From IMG/VR virus record IMGVR_UViG_3300035659_000001: 64,000 nucleotides of DNA, one strand, 5' to 3'. How positions within the stretch are numbered: the stretch's first letter is position 1; every line of letters begins with the position of its first letter. Shown here one piece after another: positions 8,515 through 63,300 of the stretch. Below the pieces are notes generated by a model. It ran no database searches. It was not told the DNA's origin and saw only the letters and a list, made by a program, of their open reading frames with translations. Source of the DNA: a virus (taxonomy: Duplodnaviria > Heunggongvirae > Uroviricota > Caudoviricetes). Both the position numbers and the translations under genes were made by a program.

Positions 8515-9036
8515 TTATTTAGCATCCAGAAAGTCGTAATCAAAAAGAGTTTTTTGACCTGTTTTTGTATCAACATGATAAATTTCGCGGTAGAAAATAG
8601 TTACTGTTGAATCTTTTTTCATACGTTGCCATAATGATTTGTGCTTTGCTTTTGTGCCTTCTATTACAAATTTAGTTCCATGTTCACATTCAAACATTAC
8701 GCCGTATTTTGCAGGTATTTCATTAATAGCATCATTATAGTATACTTGAGGCCCTGAATTGCGTTGACGCTTTCCATAGTTATTACCACTATAAGAAGTA
8801 TAATAATTATCATCATCATCGTCATAATAATTATCATCGTCATAATTATTATAAAGATTATTATTGTTGTTTGTGACTGTAACAGATCGTGTATGAGTAA
8901 CTTGAGCAGCCGTATAAAAGCAATCAGCTACTCTACCTTTTTCTGATAAAGTGCCTGAATATTCAGTTTTATAGCATCCAGTAAAGATTGCAATAGTGAT
9001 TAGAACTGTTAGAAATTTGTTCATATTTTCCTCCAA
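8515..9036 (-). CDS. putative lipoprotein with N/D/Y low-complexity insert
   Basis: MNKFLTVLITIAIFTGC lipobox-like N-terminus. Confidence 0.6.
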   Translation of the reverse strand: MEENMNKFLTVLITIAIFTGCYKTEYSGTLSEKGRVADCFYTAAQVTHTRSVTVTNNNNNLYNNYDDDNYYDDDDDNYYTSYSGNNYGKRQRNSGPQVYYNDAINEIPAKYGVMFECEHGTKFVIEGTKAKHKSLWQRMKKDSTVTIFYREIYHVDTKTGQKTLFDYDFLDAK

Positions 9037-15592: not shown

Positions 15593-17250
15593 TTTGATTC
15601 CAAAATGTTATTGCCAGATAATAAGCTTTTGACTGCTTGCGGCATTAATCTTAAAGCTTTGTCACTTTGCAATGTCAGTAAATGATTCAAGTACTTTGTT
15701 GCTGCAAGCAACGGTCGTTGTTTTGCAATAGCTAAAAACATTACTTCATTAAGTGATGATATTGATCGTATTCCAACTGATGAAGCAATATTTGAAATTG
15801 ATCTAACATCTTTTGCTTCAGCTGCAAACACTGGATTAAAATGCAATACCATTAATTTATTTTTAGTGTCAATTTTACTCTTATATGTAAACAATATTTG
15901 ATGAACAGCTCCTGCAAACGGTGCATTCTCATATCCATCACCTATCATTACTATAGTTGTACAACCGTCTTGTAATGCTTTAATTAATGCATCGCTATAA
16001 TTAGATTGGTCTTTAAGCAATGGAAATAAATATTTATCATCACTTTCTGACGTTTTATATTCTTTAAAACCATTTGAAACATGTTTTAGTATTGCACTTA
16101 TAGCCATACCACGAAGTAATGGATGAAATTTTTGATCATCAGTGCCAATCATACTCTTTGATGTATCTAAAATAACTGCAACATTATCTAAAGTAAAAGA
16201 TAAATGTTTTGCGATTGCTGTAGCTTTTTCATCAAGCAACTGTTTAAGTTTTGTAACTGACATAGGCAGTTCTGTCTTATTCATTACAGCTGAATGCAGA
16301 TAAATAAGAGAATCCATAAGATCAGTTTTTCTTATATCAAAGCCAGTGCTTGCTCCAGCGGCTTTTACCGATAGGTCTTTTGTGCGTTTTTCTTTTGCTG
16401 TGAACTGTCCGCCTTCATTTGAGAATAAATTTAAAAATTGCTCAGATGTAAGGCTGAATTTTTTAGTAAAACCTTCAGCAACAGTTACAGGTAATTTTAC
16501 CAACTTACTTTGATCACCGTTTTGTACATCAACATAGTCTTTTATAAGTTCAGGACATTTATCATATTCATTATATTTTAAATATCTCCAAATAAATGTT
16601 AGCATTTCTTTGTCTTCATTTTCAAAACGACTATAATTAATATGAGAATGTCTAAGAATTCTTTTGAAATCTTTTCTGTATTTAATAGCCCATAATGGCC
16701 AGTTTTTTTTATTTTTACGAAGATATTCATGAATTAAGAAAATGGCTCGTTTCTTTGTAACTCTCTTTTCTTGAAGCATTGAAAAGAAGTCGAATACTCG
16801 AGTTACAGGCATATTTTCAAATATCTGTAAAATTAATTCGTTCTCCCACATTGTTTGTTGTGAGTATTGATGTGTGATGCCTTTACTATCTTTATACATA
16901 TCAACAGCTTTTTCTGAGTGCTCAATTAACGTCCAGGCAATCAATTGTTTATTAACGTCATTAGTGCCTTGTGGTAACATCATCAACGTATAAAATGGTC
17001 TAACAGCATTAAAGATAGGCTCGTGCATGCTCGCTAATGACTGTTGTTGTTCTTCAGCCATGTTGTAGAATGTTGATTTGCCTATATTAGTTTGAACGGC
17101 AGAGATAAAGGATAACAACATGTCTGGTGCTAATTGACCTTGTGATTGTTCGAACAATTTTACGGATACGTTCTTTTTAACGACAGGTTTTGTTGTTACT
17201 TTTGTTGTTATTTTAGTTTTTTTCTTTTTTTCAACTGAAGATTTTTGCAT
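15589..17250 (-). CDS. vWA-domain protein with helical N-terminus (TROVE/Ro60-like architecture)
   Basis: VAVILDTSKSM (DxSxS) and IVMIGDGYEN MIDAS motifs. Confidence 0.65.
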   Translation of the reverse strand: MQKSSVEKKKKTKITTKVTTKPVVKKNVSVKLFEQSQGQLAPDMLLSFISAVQTNIGKSTFYNMAEEQQQSLASMHEPIFNAVRPFYTLMMLPQGTNDVNKQLIAWTLIEHSEKAVDMYKDSKGITHQYSQQTMWENELILQIFENMPVTRVFDFFSMLQEKRVTKKRAIFLIHEYLRKNKKNWPLWAIKYRKDFKRILRHSHINYSRFENEDKEMLTFIWRYLKYNEYDKCPELIKDYVDVQNGDQSKLVKLPVTVAEGFTKKFSLTSEQFLNLFSNEGGQFTAKEKRTKDLSVKAAGASTGFDIRKTDLMDSLIYLHSAVMNKTELPMSVTKLKQLLDEKATAIAKHLSFTLDNVAVILDTSKSMIGTDDQKFHPLLRGMAISAILKHVSNGFKEYKTSESDDKYLFPLLKDQSNYSDALIKALQDGCTTIVMIGDGYENAPFAGAVHQILFTYKSKIDTKNKLMVLHFNPVFAAEAKDVRSISNIASSVGIRSISSLNEVMFLAIAKQRPLLAATKYLNHLLTLQSDKALRLMPQAVKSLLSGNNILESK

Positions 17251-48865: not shown

Positions 48866-49564
48866 ATGAAACATTTAGCTACAATACAAAGTGAGTTTTT
48901 GAAACAAGCTCGTAAGTGGAATGATCTTTCATTAGAAGACCAAAAAGCTTATTTGAAAAGACATCCAAAAACTAAAAGAAGACTGACAGCAAGACCAAAA
49001 TCTGCTCCTAAATCTGGAGTTTATGATTCAGAAACGCAAACAGATGAAATTGACAAGTTCATACAAAAATTTAGCGATAAATATGATAGTGCTATAGAAA
49101 TATGGATGTCAGATGAAAACAAACAAAAATTATATAAAATGTATAAGTCTGGCAAATACAATTTCAAAAGCGTTATACAAGACACAGATGATTTCATAAC
49201 TTGGGTTGATAATTCTAGTAATATTGATCAATTTATTAAAAACAAAAAAGACAAAGGCTGGCAATTATTTGATAGTGAAAATAATATGGATCAACACGAA
49301 TTTATTTTTTATAAAACAAAATCTAAAATTGAAGATCCACATACTGTTACATTAGATACTGTTTTTAGTTCACAAAAAGATGAACAACGTATGAAAAGTC
49401 AAGCTGAAAAAAACGGCGTTTCTGTCAAAATGACAAATGATAGAGCAACGCTTAAAGGTCCTAAAGACAAACTAATCAAAATCATTAATAAATTTTATGA
49501 TGACGGTAGTGGTGATTTATCCCATTTACATAATCTTATAAAACCATTAAAGAAAAATAAGTAA
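48866..49564 (+). CDS. MKHLA-leader family protein 6
   Basis: MKHLATIQSEFLKQARKWNDLSLEDQKAYLKRHPKTK. Confidence 0.8.
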   Translation: MKHLATIQSEFLKQARKWNDLSLEDQKAYLKRHPKTKRRLTARPKSAPKSGVYDSETQTDEIDKFIQKFSDKYDSAIEIWMSDENKQKLYKMYKSGKYNFKSVIQDTDDFITWVDNSSNIDQFIKNKKDKGWQLFDSENNMDQHEFIFYKTKSKIEDPHTVTLDTVFSSQKDEQRMKSQAEKNGVSVKMTNDRATLKGPKDKLIKIINKFYDDGSGDLSHLHNLIKPLKKNK

Positions 49565-49665
49565 CATTTCTACGCTTTTTGACGTGAATATATTTTTGAG
49601 AATAATTGTACACTTTGATGAAAATGTAATATATTATTACCATAAGATAAGACTTAAAAATTTAG

Positions 49666-49700
49666 AAAGCTCCGTTGGACAACCACCGGAGCTTTTTTTT
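49666..49700 (+). terminator. rho-independent terminator
   Basis: AAAGCTCCG.TGG-ACAA-CCA.CGGAGCTTT + T-run. Confidence 0.8.
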
Positions 49701-51070: not shown

Positions 51071-52264
51071 ATGGAGGTAATTATGAACTTATGTAAATGT
51101 GGTAGAGAATTTTCAAATAATGGTGCATTTCAATCTCATATTAAAGTTTGTGATCACAAAATAGATTTTAATAAAATAAGAGAATTGTATAATAGTGGAT
51201 TACTAATATCACAAATTATGAGATTATGTTGCTGCAGCAAAACAGTTGTATACTATGCTATAAAGAATGAAGCTAAAAGATCTAAATCTGATATAGCAAT
51301 ACTAGCTCATAAAGACATGAATAGACGATCAATTAAAATTAATTGCAAGGTTTGCGAAATTTGTAATAGATCAATAAGTGTATACAATTTTAAACGGCAT
51401 TATGATTCTCATATTCTTGAAAAAAATTATACTGCAGAACAATTAAAAATAAGATGTCTTTATGATGATGAAAATTCTATACATGATATACTTAAAATGG
51501 GATATGCTAGATCATTAGTAAGAAAAACATTGCATGGACATAGAAGATGTATATCTGAAGCCGGCAAATTAGCTCATAAAACAAAAACTGATAGTTTTAA
51601 ACTTAATGAAATAGCAAAAGATAAAATTCGTAAAGCACGATTAAGATATTTGAAAGAACATCCCGAGGACACAGCTTGGAGAACAAAAAACATATCTTAT
51701 CCAGAAAAAATTTTTAAAAATATAATTGAAAATAATAATTTAACAAAACAATATGATGTAGTCAGAGAATATTCAGTGTTTCCGTATTTTATAGACTTTG
51801 CTTTTGTAAATATTAAATTAGCAGTTGAAATTGATGGATCTCAACATTGGTTAAAAGAAAGTAAAATTAAAAGAGATAAAGAAAAAACTGATCATCTTAT
51901 ATTAAAAGGTTGGAAAATATATAGAATACCTGAATTTAAATTGAAAAAAGAGTTTGAAGAGACTAAACTGCAATTTTTACAACATTTAAAATCAATTGAT
52001 GTACAACCTAAACTATTTACATTTGACAATGAAATTATTGAATATGAAAAAATAAAACAGCAAAAAAGATTACAAAAAGAATTACAACAACAAAAAAGGC
52101 ATAACTTGCAGCAATTAATAATAAATAATCGAATTATGGATGTGAAAAAAAATGGTCAAGATTGGGGTTATATTTCTAAATTGTCTAAGTTATGGAATGT
52201 TTCTCATACACAAGTTCGAAGATTTTTAGAAAAATATTGTCCTGAAATGTATTTTGTGAGTTAA
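51071..52264 (+). CDS. DUF559/Vsr-like homing endonuclease
   Basis: SYPE, REY...YFIDFAF...LAVEIDGSQH, RD...GWKIYRI. Confidence 0.8.
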   Translation: MEVIMNLCKCGREFSNNGAFQSHIKVCDHKIDFNKIRELYNSGLLISQIMRLCCCSKTVVYYAIKNEAKRSKSDIAILAHKDMNRRSIKINCKVCEICNRSISVYNFKRHYDSHILEKNYTAEQLKIRCLYDDENSIHDILKMGYARSLVRKTLHGHRRCISEAGKLAHKTKTDSFKLNEIAKDKIRKARLRYLKEHPEDTAWRTKNISYPEKIFKNIIENNNLTKQYDVVREYSVFPYFIDFAFVNIKLAVEIDGSQHWLKESKIKRDKEKTDHLILKGWKIYRIPEFKLKKEFEETKLQFLQHLKSIDVQPKLFTFDNEIIEYEKIKQQKRLQKELQQQKRHNLQQLIINNRIMDVKKNGQDWGYISKLSKLWNVSHTQVRRFLEKYCPEMYFVS

Positions 52265-54190: not shown

Positions 54191-54278
54191 TGCGCAGTCC
54201 AGTAGCCTGGTTAGCTGGGGAGCCTCATAAGCTTCTGGTCCCATAAGGACCTCGTCGGTTCAAATCCGACCTGCGCTA
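54191..54278 (+). tRNA. tRNA(CAU), Met/fMet-like, with long variable arm
   Basis: GGAGC-CTCATAA-GCTTC; 1:72 mismatch; extra arm GGTCC-CATAA-GGACC. Confidence 0.75.
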
Positions 54279-55949: not shown

Positions 55950-55957
55950 TGTTTCTT

Positions 55958-56041
55958 GCTAAGATGGCGGAATTGGCATACGCTCTATGTTCACCATAGT
56001 CCTCTTCAAAGAGGGTAAGAGTTCAAGTCTCTTTCTTAGCA
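55958..56041 (+). tRNA. tRNA-Leu-like with a 5-nt anticodon loop (TTCAC)
   Basis: Leu-type D-arm, variable arm and A73; CTATG-TTCAC-CATAG. Confidence 0.65.
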
Positions 56042-56050
56042 TTTATTACA

Positions 56051-59540: not shown

Positions 59541-59573
59541 AGTGGTCAATGATCATAATGGTTATTGACCACT
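59541..59573. terminator. hairpin just upstream of the leader peptide
   Basis: AGTGGTCAATGATC-ATAAT-GGTTATTGACCACT. Confidence 0.5.
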
Positions 59574-59594
59574 TAATTTAACAAAAAGGATTGT

Positions 59595-59708
59595 ATGAGT
59601 TTCATTATTCGATTTTTACTTGAAGCATTTGCAACATCTGTTGTACTAGCCACAATTGCAACGTTTGCTATTACAGTGATTAATACAAGGAGATCACATA
59701 GAACTTAG
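59595..59708 (+). CDS. putative attenuator leader peptide (Ile/Thr/Ala/Arg-rich, 37 aa)
   Basis: AAGGA RBS; MSFIIRFLLEAFATSVVLATIATFAITVINTRRSHRT*. Confidence 0.65.
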   Translation: MSFIIRFLLEAFATSVVLATIATFAITVINTRRSHRT

Positions 59709-59769
59709 AGGTCAACTAAATACAAGGAAATATTTAAAGGGCCTCTAAAATGATTTAGGGGCCCTTTTT
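59705..59769 (+). promoter_or_regulatory. attenuator (antiterminator/terminator pair)
   Basis: Terminator AAAGGGCCTCTAAA-ATGA-TTTAGGGGCCCTTTTT; TTAGAGGTC (59705-13) can pair with GGCCTCTAA (59740-48). Confidence 0.7.
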
Positions 59770-59781
59770 ATTTGGTAAGGT

Positions 59782-59964
59782 ATGAAATATATGGAAAAAT
59801 TAATAGCTTTATTCTTGATATTACTGAATTGTTCTAGTAGTTTAGAGATAATAACCGATTCTATCCGAAATGTTCAAGAAATTAAAAGCAAAAAACAAAT
59901 TGTTAGAATAGATTCGACAATTGTTGATGGCAAAAAATTCTATGACGTACATTATAGGAACTAA
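59782..59964 (+). CDS. small lipoprotein-like protein
   Basis: LIALFLILLNC. Confidence 0.5.
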   Translation: MKYMEKLIALFLILLNCSSSLEIITDSIRNVQEIKSKKQIVRIDSTIVDGKKFYDVHYRN

Positions 59965-60033
59965 ATTATTATGACTTATTTGCTTGAAACAAAATTTTTA
60001 CAATATGATACGTTTACTGTTTAAGGAGCATGT

Positions 60034-60627
60034 ATGACCTCGGTTATTGTTTTAACTAGAGACTATCAATTTTGGGGAGAAATTGATTTAGAATCTAAAG
60101 GCAGACAAAGATTTTGGAAGTTATTATCAAAAGAAAAAATAGAAATCTTAGCTGCAGATGAATATGAAGAAATAGGTACTACATCTTTTAAAGTAAAAAA
60201 ACCGTTTGTTATTCGCTTACTAAAATTTGTAGGCTATAAAATAAAGAAATCAGAGATTAATTGGAGTGCTGAAGCTATTTTTGCAAGAGACAATAATGTA
60301 TGTCAATACTGGCATTATAATGAATATAGTAAGTCATTTAAATACCGTTGCAAAGATGGCGAAAGAACAATTGATCATTTAGAACCGAGGTCAAGAGGCG
60401 GAGAAAATACGTTTGAAAATACGGTCTGTGCATGTCATGACTGTAACGTGAATATTAAAAAAGATAGACCGCTAAAAGATACTGGTCTAAAATTAATAAG
60501 AAAGCCGTTTGTGCCAAAACAGAATAAAGATGATTTTGCAATTATAAAATTTGCGTATAATCCTAATAAACTATCACATAGAATATATGTTGAAAGAATA
60601 TTGGGAGGAGAAGTTTTAGGAGATTAG
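60034..60627 (+). CDS. HNH endonuclease (McrA-like)
   Basis: P.VIRL, IFARD...CQY, TIDH..PRSRGG..TFEN.V.AC..CN. Confidence 0.88.
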   Translation: MTSVIVLTRDYQFWGEIDLESKGRQRFWKLLSKEKIEILAADEYEEIGTTSFKVKKPFVIRLLKFVGYKIKKSEINWSAEAIFARDNNVCQYWHYNEYSKSFKYRCKDGERTIDHLEPRSRGGENTFENTVCACHDCNVNIKKDRPLKDTGLKLIRKPFVPKQNKDDFAIIKFAYNPNKLSHRIYVERILGGEVLGD

Positions 60628-60691
60628 CTCAGACAGTTAGAGCACAGTCCTGATAAGACTGAGGTGACTGGCGCGATACCAGTATCTCCTA
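60618..60691 (+). tRNA. tRNA-Ile(GAU)
   Basis: CAGTC-CTGATAA-GACTG; atypical T-loop CGCGATA; overlaps the HNH stop. Confidence 0.85.
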
Positions 60692-60763
60692 TTTTTACAA
60701 TTTTAGAGTTGAATATGAACTTTATTTGTGACAATTAAGACAATTATGAAACAAGGAGCTTTT

Positions 60764-60940
60764 ATGATTGATGCTAAAATGTTAGTAGATAGTCAAGTTT
60801 GTGTTTCATTTGCAGAAGCTAGAAGTTTAATACAGAGTATGTCTGAAGAAAAACTAGTGCAACTATTGAAACAAAAGCAAGATCAACAATGGGGTCGTAA
60901 ACTTAAAAAATCTGTTAGATTAGTATGGCCTGAATTATGA
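60764..60940 (+). CDS. hypothetical protein
   Basis: AGGAG RBS. Confidence 0.55.
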   Translation: MIDAKMLVDSQVCVSFAEARSLIQSMSEEKLVQLLKQKQDQQWGRKLKKSVRLVWPEL

Positions 60941-61188
60941 TTTATGTTGATGATTTGAAACAATATGATACTAAATTGAAAAATAAAACATGGTGTCATT
61001 TATGGGCTGATGATGTTTCAGAGTTACATGAATTTGCTCAGAAAATAGGTTTAAAACGCGAGTGGTTTCAAAATAAAAAATTATTTGCTCATTATGATTT
61101 AGTGTTAAATAAAAGAATATTAGCACTTGAAAACGGAGCAACATATATTAATTTAAAGCAATATTTAAAAACAAAAGTGCTACAGTAG
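60937..61188 (+). CDS. DUF4031-family protein
   Basis: IYVD, WCHLWAD..ELHEFA..IGLKREWFQ...HYDL...R..A...GA. Confidence 0.85.
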   Translation: MIYVDDLKQYDTKLKNKTWCHLWADDVSELHEFAQKIGLKREWFQNKKLFAHYDLVLNKRILALENGATYINLKQYLKTKVLQ

Positions 61189-61251
61189 CTCAATTAGTAG
61201 AGTTCATCCTTTGTAACGATGATGTTGCGGGTGCGAGTCCTGCCTGTAGCT
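61179..61251 (+). tRNA. tRNA-Thr(UGU)
   Basis: CATC.-TTTGTAA-.GATG; T-loop TGCGAGT. Confidence 0.83.
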
Positions 61252-61256
61252 TTTAA

Positions 61257-61292
61257 AACACGAGGTTGACAGTGCAAGTCTGTCCAGATCCA
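61257..61292 (+). pseudogene. tRNA 3' half (possibly Ala: U70, A73)
   Basis: AA-CACGA-GGTT-GACAG-TGCAAGT-CTGTC-CAGATCC-A with no 5' half. Confidence 0.55.
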
Positions 61293-61303
61293 TTATAGAT
61301 TTT

Positions 61304-61383
61304 GCCCGTATAGTCGAGTCTGCCTTCTAAGTAGATAATCGTAATTGGAACTGAAAATACTGGTTCGAATCCAGTTACGGGTA
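61304..61383 (+). tRNA. atypical tRNA-Arg(UCU) lacking a canonical D-arm
   Basis: GCCCGTA/TACGGGT, TCTGC-CTTCTAA-GTAGA, ACTGG-TTCGAAT-CCAGT. Confidence 0.72.
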
Positions 61384-61460
61384 TTAATTTTTTAAAGAAA
61401 GTGAGATATTTTTCTAAAGAAAGAATAGGTCAAATTTAATCCGAGTTAATCAATATCATA

Positions 61461-61482
61461 AAAAGCCAGATTTCTGGCTTTT
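61461..61482. terminator. bidirectional terminator-like hairpin ending the tRNA operon
   Basis: AAAAGCCAG-ATTT-CTGGCTTTT. Confidence 0.65.
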
Positions 61483-62187
61483 GTTACGTCTAGAGCATTT
61501 TAAAAAGATATTTTGAACAAAACAGCCCCCATAATATCGTGCGCGCGTATAGACACGTGATTCAATGAAAATAAATTTTTCGATCAAGTTAAAACTTGAA
61601 TGTCCATTTGTAAACCTAGCAATAACGACAGCTGCATGCTATTCTAAATTCTTTGTTTACATTTTGCGAAGAGTTACTTTTCTTATGAAAAAATGGCAAA
61701 TTATAAATTGAAAATGCCTGTTTCTAACGCGATGCGTGCGCGCTAGTGCGATGTGCGCGTACACGCGCGAAAACAGACAATTACGATCTCTGCACGTGAA
61801 AGCTGCAACTAAAAATTATAGTGTGTTTACATTTAGGAAAAATTTGATGAATGTGGACAGTTGGTTTTGTAGTATCGCGATAATTTACATCTACGCGTTG
61901 AGAAATGTCAGTTGTCGTAGACTTTGTAGAAAAATTTAAAAATGAGATACTATTTAGTAATAACATTATAATTAGAATTTAAGTCGCCCAGTTCATAAAA
62001 AAAAAGTTTTTTAAGCATTCGTAAACTTTTGTTGAGAAAATGCATATAAAAAAATGAGCCTTTCGAAGAAAGGATCATGTCATTATGTACTCAAAAATAA
62101 GTCTATTCGTAAGTTAAGATCTAAGAGTTTCAATGAATACTCGATTAACATGAAATCTTGTAATTTATATAATTGTAAGCCGACAAA

Positions 62188-62965: not shown

Positions 62966-63043
62966 ATGAAAAATCTTAATTCAAACAGTTTATATCGGCT
63001 AGGTCAACGACAACCGCGACCAAAAGGCAAGAATAATGTTTGA
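62966..63043 (+). CDS. putative attenuator leader peptide (Gln/Pro/Arg block, 25 aa)
   Basis: AGGTGA RBS; MKNLNSNSLYRLGQRQPRPKGKNNV*. Confidence 0.7.
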   Translation: MKNLNSNSLYRLGQRQPRPKGKNNV

Positions 63044-63109
63044 GTGAGATAGTGTAGAAGTTATTGAATAAAAAAAGAGTCTCACTTGAAAAAGAGGGAC
63101 TCTTTTTTT
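63039..63109 (+). promoter_or_regulatory. attenuator (antiterminator/terminator pair)
   Basis: Terminator AAAAAAGAGTCTCACTT-GAAA-AAGAGGGACTCTTTTTTT; TTTGAGTGAGA (63039-49) can pair with TCTCACTTGAA (63080-90). Confidence 0.75.
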
Positions 63110-63121
63110 ATTTGGAATAAA

Positions 63122-63194
63122 CGGGGCGTAGCTCAATTGGCTGAGCACATGATTTGGGTTCATGCGGTTATCAGTTCGACTCTGATTGCCCCGA
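63122..63194 (+). tRNA. tRNA-Pro(UGG)
   Basis: CATGA-TTTGGGT-TCATG. Confidence 0.92.
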
Positions 63195-63225
63195 TAAATC
63201 ATTGGATTAATGATTGAAAATATAC

Positions 63226-63300
63226 TGGAGCATGGTGTAATTGGCAACACAGAAGCCCTTGGAGTTTCTTTTCATGGTTCGAGTCCATGTGCTCCAGCCA
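63226..63300 (+). tRNA. tRNA-Gln(UUG)
   Basis: GAAGC-CCTTGGA-GTTTC (C33); U1:A72; encoded CCA. Confidence 0.88.

Follow-up and report, generated by a model that had tools for sequence, protein, structure and literature searches.

A probable codon-matched leader-peptide attenuator ahead of a phage tRNA operon

Near the 3′ end of a 64,000-nucleotide stretch of viral DNA (Caudoviricetes; IMG/VR record IMGVR_UViG_3300035659_000001), which we call the window, a 37-codon open reading frame (ORF) and an intrinsic terminator precede a block of tRNA and protein genes (Table 1). This unit is probably a codon-matched, multivalent leader-peptide transcription attenuator that gates the tRNA operon, a reading that we draw from sequence comparison and from modelled RNA folds. 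Every comparative test that we ran supports it; its promoter and the regulation itself are what we infer.

Leader codons, terminator and modelled switch

A recount of the leader codons agrees with the preliminary description of this DNA: there are five Ile (all ATT), six Thr (four ACA), five Ala and four Arg codons (CGA, AGG, AGA and AGA), with the AGG and AGA codons near the end. Ile, Thr and Arg make up 15 of the 36 codons, compared with 17.9% across the long ORFs of the window (p = 7.5e-4), and with Ala the count rises to 20 of 36 (p = 1.3e-5). The earlier suggestion that these codons match the local tRNA set beyond chance thus stands for Ile, Thr and Arg and falls for Ala, since the block holds no tRNA-Ala (see below).

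The strong terminator that had been described at 59736–59769 is indeed present, with a 14-bp stem at 59736–59767 (about −20.5 kcal/mol) followed by a T tract, and the 64 kb contain four clear terminators on the + strand, this one included. The sequence TTAGAGGTC (59705–59713), which spans the TAG stop codon of the leader, can pair over the 9 bp originally reported, including one G-U, with the terminator 5′ arm at 59740–59748. Just 0.25% of the 30-nt windows of this DNA pair equally well with that arm.

The ribosome was modelled by masking the RNA beneath it, and the folds represent the equilibrium of truncated RNAs, not kinetics. On these terms the antiterminator fold (−14.8 kcal/mol) has the lowest energy until the terminator 3′ arm is nearly complete, and in the window the boundary between antiterminator and terminator lies between ribosome positions at codons 33 and 36. 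With no ribosome present, the antiterminator has a probability of 1.0 in the window and of 0.86–1.0 in the orthologous loci described below (at mid-terminator length); a trp-like protector hairpin is therefore not predicted, and any failure of translation is expected to give read-through. With a ribosome 5 or 10 codons short of the stop, the antiterminator stays dominant at all eight loci (probability 0.85–1.0); with one at the stop, it is lost at all eight and the terminator forms.

Under the proposed mechanism, polymerase would transcribe the leader and a ribosome would load at the AAGGA Shine-Dalgarno (SD) sequence. Fast decoding of the Ile, Thr, Ala and Arg codons would bring the ribosome to the last codons, where it would cover 59705–59713 before the terminator is complete, and transcription would stop near 59770; here the fold is modelled and the kinetics are presumed. 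Were decoding slow, the cognate tRNA being uncharged, cleaved or in short supply, the ribosome would lag at codon 33 or earlier, 59705–59713 would pair with 59740–59748, and the terminator would not be nucleated. The unit containing the HNH endonuclease gene and tRNA-Ile, tRNA-Thr and tRNA-Arg would then be transcribed (again a modelled fold and a presumed regulation), and the new tRNAs would speed the decoding of those codons and so close the loop.

Conservation at orthologous loci and match between leaders and tRNA blocks

Further loci (numbered with the prefix L) were compared. Those other than L002, which carries the leader peptide's one homologue, were found with the neighbouring HNH gene as anchor and so were selected regardless of leader content. 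The close relative L002 keeps the ribosome-binding site, ORF, antiterminator, terminator and downstream genes, its upstream DNA is unrelated, and between it and the window the leader frame and stop position are kept, with both ORF indels preserving the frame. Six more distant loci (L003, L006, L007, L010, L011 and L012) have a 26–44-codon ORF in the same slot, followed in every case by a terminator and then tRNA(CAU), which is truncated in L006. Where the contig continues (L003, L007, L010 and L012), Ile, Thr, Ala and mostly Arg tRNAs come next. Short ORFs with an SD sequence are present in all orthologues, and Ile, Thr, Ala and Arg fill 8–11 of the last 14 codons of the six distant leaders. 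The Ala codons of the window's leader probably reflect an ancestral block that contained tRNA-Ala, as the blocks of those same four loci do.

The geometry is equally constant. The gap from stop codon to terminator is 30–39 nt at 8 of 8 orthologous loci, and at all of them the antiterminator starts at the stop or no more than 5 nt from it and pairs with the terminator 5′ arm despite differing arm sequences. The window's antiterminator strand pairs at −13.9 kcal/mol with its own arm vs −3.9 to −8.0 kcal/mol with the arms of five distant orthologues; over 29 units the values are −11.9 for own arms and −8.0 for swapped ones (0 of 100,000 permutations). Composition and geometry are conserved here rather than a protein, and the comparison supports a view of the peptide as a by-product, with selection acting on the codons of the leader and on the spacing and pairing between stop codon and terminator.

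The preliminary description had cautioned that the leader might simply encode a small membrane protein. On such a reading, the terminator would end an upstream transcript and the tRNAs would have promoters of their own. The window's peptide is hydrophobic (maximum KD19 of 2.15) with a basic tail, and there are weak internal promoter-like sites in the block. A search of 5.8 billion proteins and 1.8 billion cluster representatives, with the leader extended by three in-frame upstream codons to reach the 40-residue minimum, returned a single homologue, P0002, which lies on L002 in the same context and is likewise hydrophobic (maximum KD19 of 2.01); there is no Pfam match to the leader peptide. The syntenic peptides of the six distant loci do not align with that of the window and are not hydrophobic (maximum KD19 of −0.02 to 1.13), yet they keep the codon bias and the switch. 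The finding that the preliminary description had said would refute the attenuator, conservation of the peptide as a membrane protein, was thus not made. Among 604 hydrophobic 36-residue windows taken from related loci, not one has as many as 20 Ile/Thr/Ala/Arg residues, so hydrophobicity does not explain the composition of the leader. Moreover, a tRNA begins 14–41 nt past the terminator in five relatives, which leaves little space for a promoter there. We consider a membrane protein to be an extremely improbable account of the unit; a membrane side role of this one peptide, beside the switch, is possible.

For a wider comparison, units were defined by a terminator of −10 kcal/mol or lower, a tRNA within 1.2 kb and an ATG-initiated ORF of 12–60 codons ending 24–46 nt upstream, with the leader start chosen by SD energy. 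Such a leader is present at 41 of 47 terminators ahead of tRNA blocks (31 of 36 after removal of duplicate loci). Among control terminators the figure is 6 of 49, and two of these six resemble leaders whose tRNAs lie off the contig or further off. The preliminary description had proposed a permutation test of leader codons against downstream anticodons; for 29 distinct units it was strongly positive (own-block enrichment sum z = 82 vs a null of 5 ± 8; 0 of 200,000 permutations), with a global p value that overstates independence because the units are related by descent. This kinship makes a swap of leaders within genomes the fairer test, and there the own pairing was best in 6 of 6 multi-block genomes (p = 0.0017, or about 0.014 if three clades are counted). 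Block compositions differ by clade (Pro/Gln/Arg; Lys/Arg/Val/Trp/Asp; Thr/Lys; Ala/Glu/Asp/Ser/Gly), and the leaders follow them. Synonymous codons do so as well, with an AGR:CGN ratio of Arg codons of 13:6 where the block's tRNA-Arg genes read only AGR and of 3:24 where they read only CGN (Fisher p = 1e-4, not corrected for kinship). Thus, the Arg codon class tracks the anticodons, a synonymous choice that does not come from peptide function. A weak sign, as it represents a single event, is that an internal ATG occurs in the leaders of the five relatives whose block opens with tRNA(CAU) and in the window's leader does not.

The window itself contains a sister unit at 62966 with, as first reported, the same architecture and an unrelated sequence; the AGR:CGN ratio is 3:1 in the 59595 leader and 0:3 in the 62966 leader. 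The further claim of a separate sensor for every tRNA operon does not hold for the genome as read, since the first block (His/Asp/Trp/Gly/Glu/Tyr/Met/Leu/Lys/Ser) is preceded at 49569–49700 by a terminator of the family's shape and tail without leader or antiterminator. A frame from the GTG at 49584 runs through this terminator into the next ORF. The terminator may be that of a decayed or rewired attenuator, or it may simply be the end of the upstream operon.

The same layout is found in the cultured phage phiCbK (JX100813), where a 45-codon ORF (49540–49677) rich in Ala/Ser/Thr/Leu/Pro/Lys and a terminator precede Pro/Lys/Leu/Ala/Ser tRNAs, and a 32-codon ORF (51341–51439) rich in Arg/Val/Gln/Ile/Phe, a few bases past a sigma70-like promoter, precedes Phe/Val/Ile/Gln tRNAs (both described here without statistics). 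phiCbK thereby offers a cultured test system.

Contrary evidence, other explanations and known systems

Several observations weigh against the codon-matched attenuator, in addition to the kinship of the units. Once complete, the terminator is more stable at equilibrium than the antiterminator, by about 6 kcal/mol, so that only a kinetic switch could work, and neither a pause hairpin nor an anti-antiterminator was found at the locus. Coupling of transcription and translation is assumed. The block has no tRNA-Ala, though Ala accounts for a quarter of the codon bias, and its tRNA-Arg(UCU) is structurally odd. The best sigma70-like site before the leader matches at 8 of 12 positions (TTGTAC-17-CATAAT), there being no strong promoter, and four 9/12 sites lie within the block (59882, 60465, 60955 and 61120), a score that occurs at chance frequency in window DNA.

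Promoters are plainer elsewhere. Strong, dedicated sigma70-like promoters precede many related leaders, and some leaders start 7–10 nt past a strong −10 box with no SD sequence, as leaderless versions (L033 9297, L046 8235, L047 4348 and 7627, L067 1979, L070 and L074). The motif TCTACG-N10-TGA(T/A), a candidate phage-specific promoter, lies about 20–35 nt before the block-2 leaders of relatives; its TCTACG-N10-TGAT form, which precedes the leader in five relatives, has no copy before the window's 59595 leader.

It is conceivable that the unit is a decayed relic, in that the switch works in relatives and in this lineage the block has lost tRNAs and promoter and the regulation is gone. The loss of tRNA(CAU) and tRNA-Ala, the tRNA fragment, the atypical tRNA-Arg, the missing promoter-like motif and the leaderless terminator before the first block would all fit such decay. 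In comparison with L002, however, ribosome-binding site, frame, stop, antiterminator and terminator are kept amid non-homologous upstream DNA, both ORF indels are in frame, and the odd tRNA-Arg build is kept in L086. We give decay very little credence.

Alternatively, the leader could be a translation-coupled attenuator that responds to the overall speed of ribosomes or to their arrest (as in host shut-off, under antibiotics or in abortive infection), its codon content being loosely tuned or an ancestral leftover. Such a sensor agrees with the formation of the antiterminator without a ribosome, by which any translation failure would give read-through, with the persistence of Ala codons before a block that lacks tRNA-Ala, and with the scattering of the control codons, which form no long runs. 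But leaders partition the amino acids by block within one genome, and their use of AGR or CGN codons goes with the class of Arg anticodon in the block; a general sensor needs neither, and we regard it as unlikely.

Precedents for the parts of a codon-matched attenuator exist in cells. The control amino acids of E. coli thrL are Thr and Ile, and those of the ilvGMEDA leader are Ile, Val and Leu. The pheM leader of pheST and other aminoacyl-tRNA synthetase attenuators give feedback through charged-tRNA supply, and T-box riboswitches bind tRNA directly, without translation. In Corynebacterium ilvB, a short upstream ORF (uORFC-75-1) is rich in several control amino acids, an alternative helix competes for the terminator 5′ arm, and stalling is predicted to cause read-through (PMC11109978). 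The window's unit resembles these multivalent amino-acid attenuators (thrL, ilvGMEDA and ilvB) in its short upstream ORF, its alternative helix and the predicted read-through upon stalling; it differs in that they control biosynthetic enzymes and it would control phage tRNA genes, in the overlap of its antiterminator with the stop codon, and in having no sequence relation to them. Rfam leader families stay below the cut-off of 55 at the locus (Phe_leader 22.2 bits, Thr_leader 21.8 bits).

In E. coli pheL/pheA, trpL and hisL, ribosome position selects between antiterminator (2:3) and terminator (3:4) (PMC3082878). Attenuators of the trp/phe/his type have a 1:2 pause/protector hairpin and long single-codon runs, and the window's unit has neither; without translation, they super-attenuate and it is predicted to read through. 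Synthetase attenuators control cell proteins, whereas here the targets would be tRNA genes themselves, and viral ones. As with T-boxes, tRNA status would decide between termination and read-through, but the window's unit conserves an ORF and a ribosome-binding site; a T-box was rejected, with no Rfam match even at E values up to 5. We found no precedent for attenuation of tRNA genes in the literature searched, in which subscription journals are poorly covered; as far as that search extends, this would be a known mechanism with an undescribed target, a tRNA operon.

The reason for which phages carry tRNAs has long been debated; PMC10264068 addresses it, with phage tRNAs as a counter to tRNA-cleaving host defences (VapC, PrrC and colicin-type nucleases), and its abstract describes no demand-sensing control. 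In line with that work, the purpose of the window's unit may be rescue from tRNA depletion. We lean, by a modest degree, toward a broader view in which large phages regulate their tRNA pool by feedback. Each block would be on only when ribosomes slow on its codons, at the level of isoacceptors, and leaders would sense depletion of host tRNA, for example by an anticodon-nuclease defence, and trigger its replacement; the arrangement would recur in unrelated lineages with no described cellular counterpart for tRNA genes. If the attenuator reading is true, phage tRNAs are a demand-driven rescue, not a constant supplement, and the counter-depletion hypothesis becomes directly testable by cleaving or starving one tRNA and watching which block responds. 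It would also be the first case, as far as we found, of leader-peptide attenuation of tRNA genes, would explain the grouping of tRNAs in these arrays, would make the leaders natural reporters of tRNA availability, and would call for re-annotation of many small proteins of tRNA arrays that are now listed as hypothetical.

The downstream block and other features of the window

Table 1. Features of the attenuator unit, its sister unit and the upstream region (window positions unless a locus is named)
Feature	Position	Strand	Evidence or remark
15-bp hairpin just 5′ of leader ribosome-binding site, absent in L002; overlaps weak sigma70-like site	59541..59573	+	Folding, L002 comparison
Shine-Dalgarno AAGGA of leader	59586..59590	+	Sequence; conserved in L002, homology begins here
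37-codon leader ORF, 20/36 codons Ile/Thr/Ala/Arg	59595..59708	+	Codon count; also a gene call in an independent assembly
Antiterminator 5′ strand TTAGAGGTC, over stop codon	59705..59713	+	Folds, pairing, co-variation
Inner A-U stem of spacer, stacks within antiterminator (whole fold −14.8 kcal/mol)	59717..59736	+	Folding
Intrinsic terminator, stem and T tract; 5′ arm 59740–59748 common with antiterminator	59736..59773	+	Folding, terminator scan
60-aa ORF, where relatives have tRNA(CAU)	59782..59964	+	ORF list, locus comparison
HNH endonuclease, 197 aa; family in or next to large-phage tRNA arrays	60034..60627	+	Profile and homologue searches
tRNA-Ile(GAU), overlaps HNH stop codon	60618..60691	+	tRNA scans; canonical
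58-aa ORF	60764..60940	+	ORF list
DUF4031 gene	60937..61188	+	Domain search
tRNA-Thr(UGU)	61179..61251	+	tRNA scans; canonical
Orphan tRNA 3′ half (T arm and acceptor 3′ strand)	61264..61292	+	Closest to window tRNA-Lys(UUU)
tRNA-Arg(UCU), no normal D arm, long extra region	61304..61383	+	Rfam 37 bits
9-bp hairpin, T runs on both strands, −12.2 kcal/mol; probable unit end	61461..61482	+	Folding
Sister unit: 25-codon Gln/Pro/Arg leader, antiterminator over stop, terminator 63071–63109, tRNA-Pro(UGG), tRNA-Gln(UUG)	62966..63300	+	Folds, tRNA scan
TCTACG-N10-TGA(T/A) copies	Window 49569; L003 7226; L006 407; L007 5014; L086 9618; L087 9558		Motif comparison

The block downstream of the terminator also holds four protein genes, including those for the HNH nuclease and the DUF4031 protein, and its first tRNA lies about 850 nt 3′ of the terminator, past the 60-aa ORF and the HNH gene, a layout that the preliminary description omitted. 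Its tRNA-Ile(GAU), tRNA-Thr(UGU) and 61461 hairpin were all recovered. The 3′ half that had been called Ala-like is instead best matched by the 3′ half of the window's tRNA-Lys(UUU) (27 of 33 nt; score 43, vs 26 for the best of about 30 phage tRNA-Ala genes), and hence the block is without tRNA-Ala.

The tRNA-Arg(UCU) is present as described, with an abnormal build. The same build occurs twice in L086 (17809–17886 and 18831–18911, with UCU and CCU anticodons). In the window and L086 alike, the long extra region holds a D-loop-like motif, and the build is kept with paired changes; this recurrence indicates a conserved form, and the build is probably that of a real, unusual tRNA. At the place of the relatives' tRNA-Arg, L003 has a tRNA-like gene whose anticodon arm is shortened (8797–8865).

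In most close relatives (L003–L093), members of this HNH family lie within or alongside tRNA arrays, and the protein is possibly a homing nuclease specialised on such arrays. Its best match in cultured phages is at about 35%, with no close relative among them. The HNH gene was rejected as the regulated target, because its position among blocks varies and leader content follows the tRNA set. One close-relative contig has a gap between HNH and the next gene that is about 100 nt longer, which leaves space for one more tRNA.

The window is 30% G+C, encodes ribonucleotide reductase, dUTPase and many HNH/GIY-YIG genes, and has 17 tRNA genes in three groups. The nearest loci lie on viral contigs of 330–467 kb, and the source of the window reads as a very large phage. 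Among its other tRNAs are a tRNA-like gene at 55957–56042 with anticodon UCA (SeC according to ARAGORN), which might be a Sec tRNA, an opal suppressor or a mis-call, and an initiator-like tRNA(CAU) at 54191–54278 with an enlarged variable region. Several ORFs between 40829 and 49564 have in common an N-terminal segment of about 45 residues fused to unrelated bodies. The apparently non-coding DNA at 61500–62050 carries CGCG-rich palindromic patches in AT-rich surroundings and has no homologue among the fetched loci. In other large phages, a tRNA with anticodon UUA in the tRNA array of L087 (3432–3505) is a possible ochre suppressor, and Rfam matches to tmRNA and to a group I intron overlap at 16324–16935 of L086, a 416-kb phage contig.

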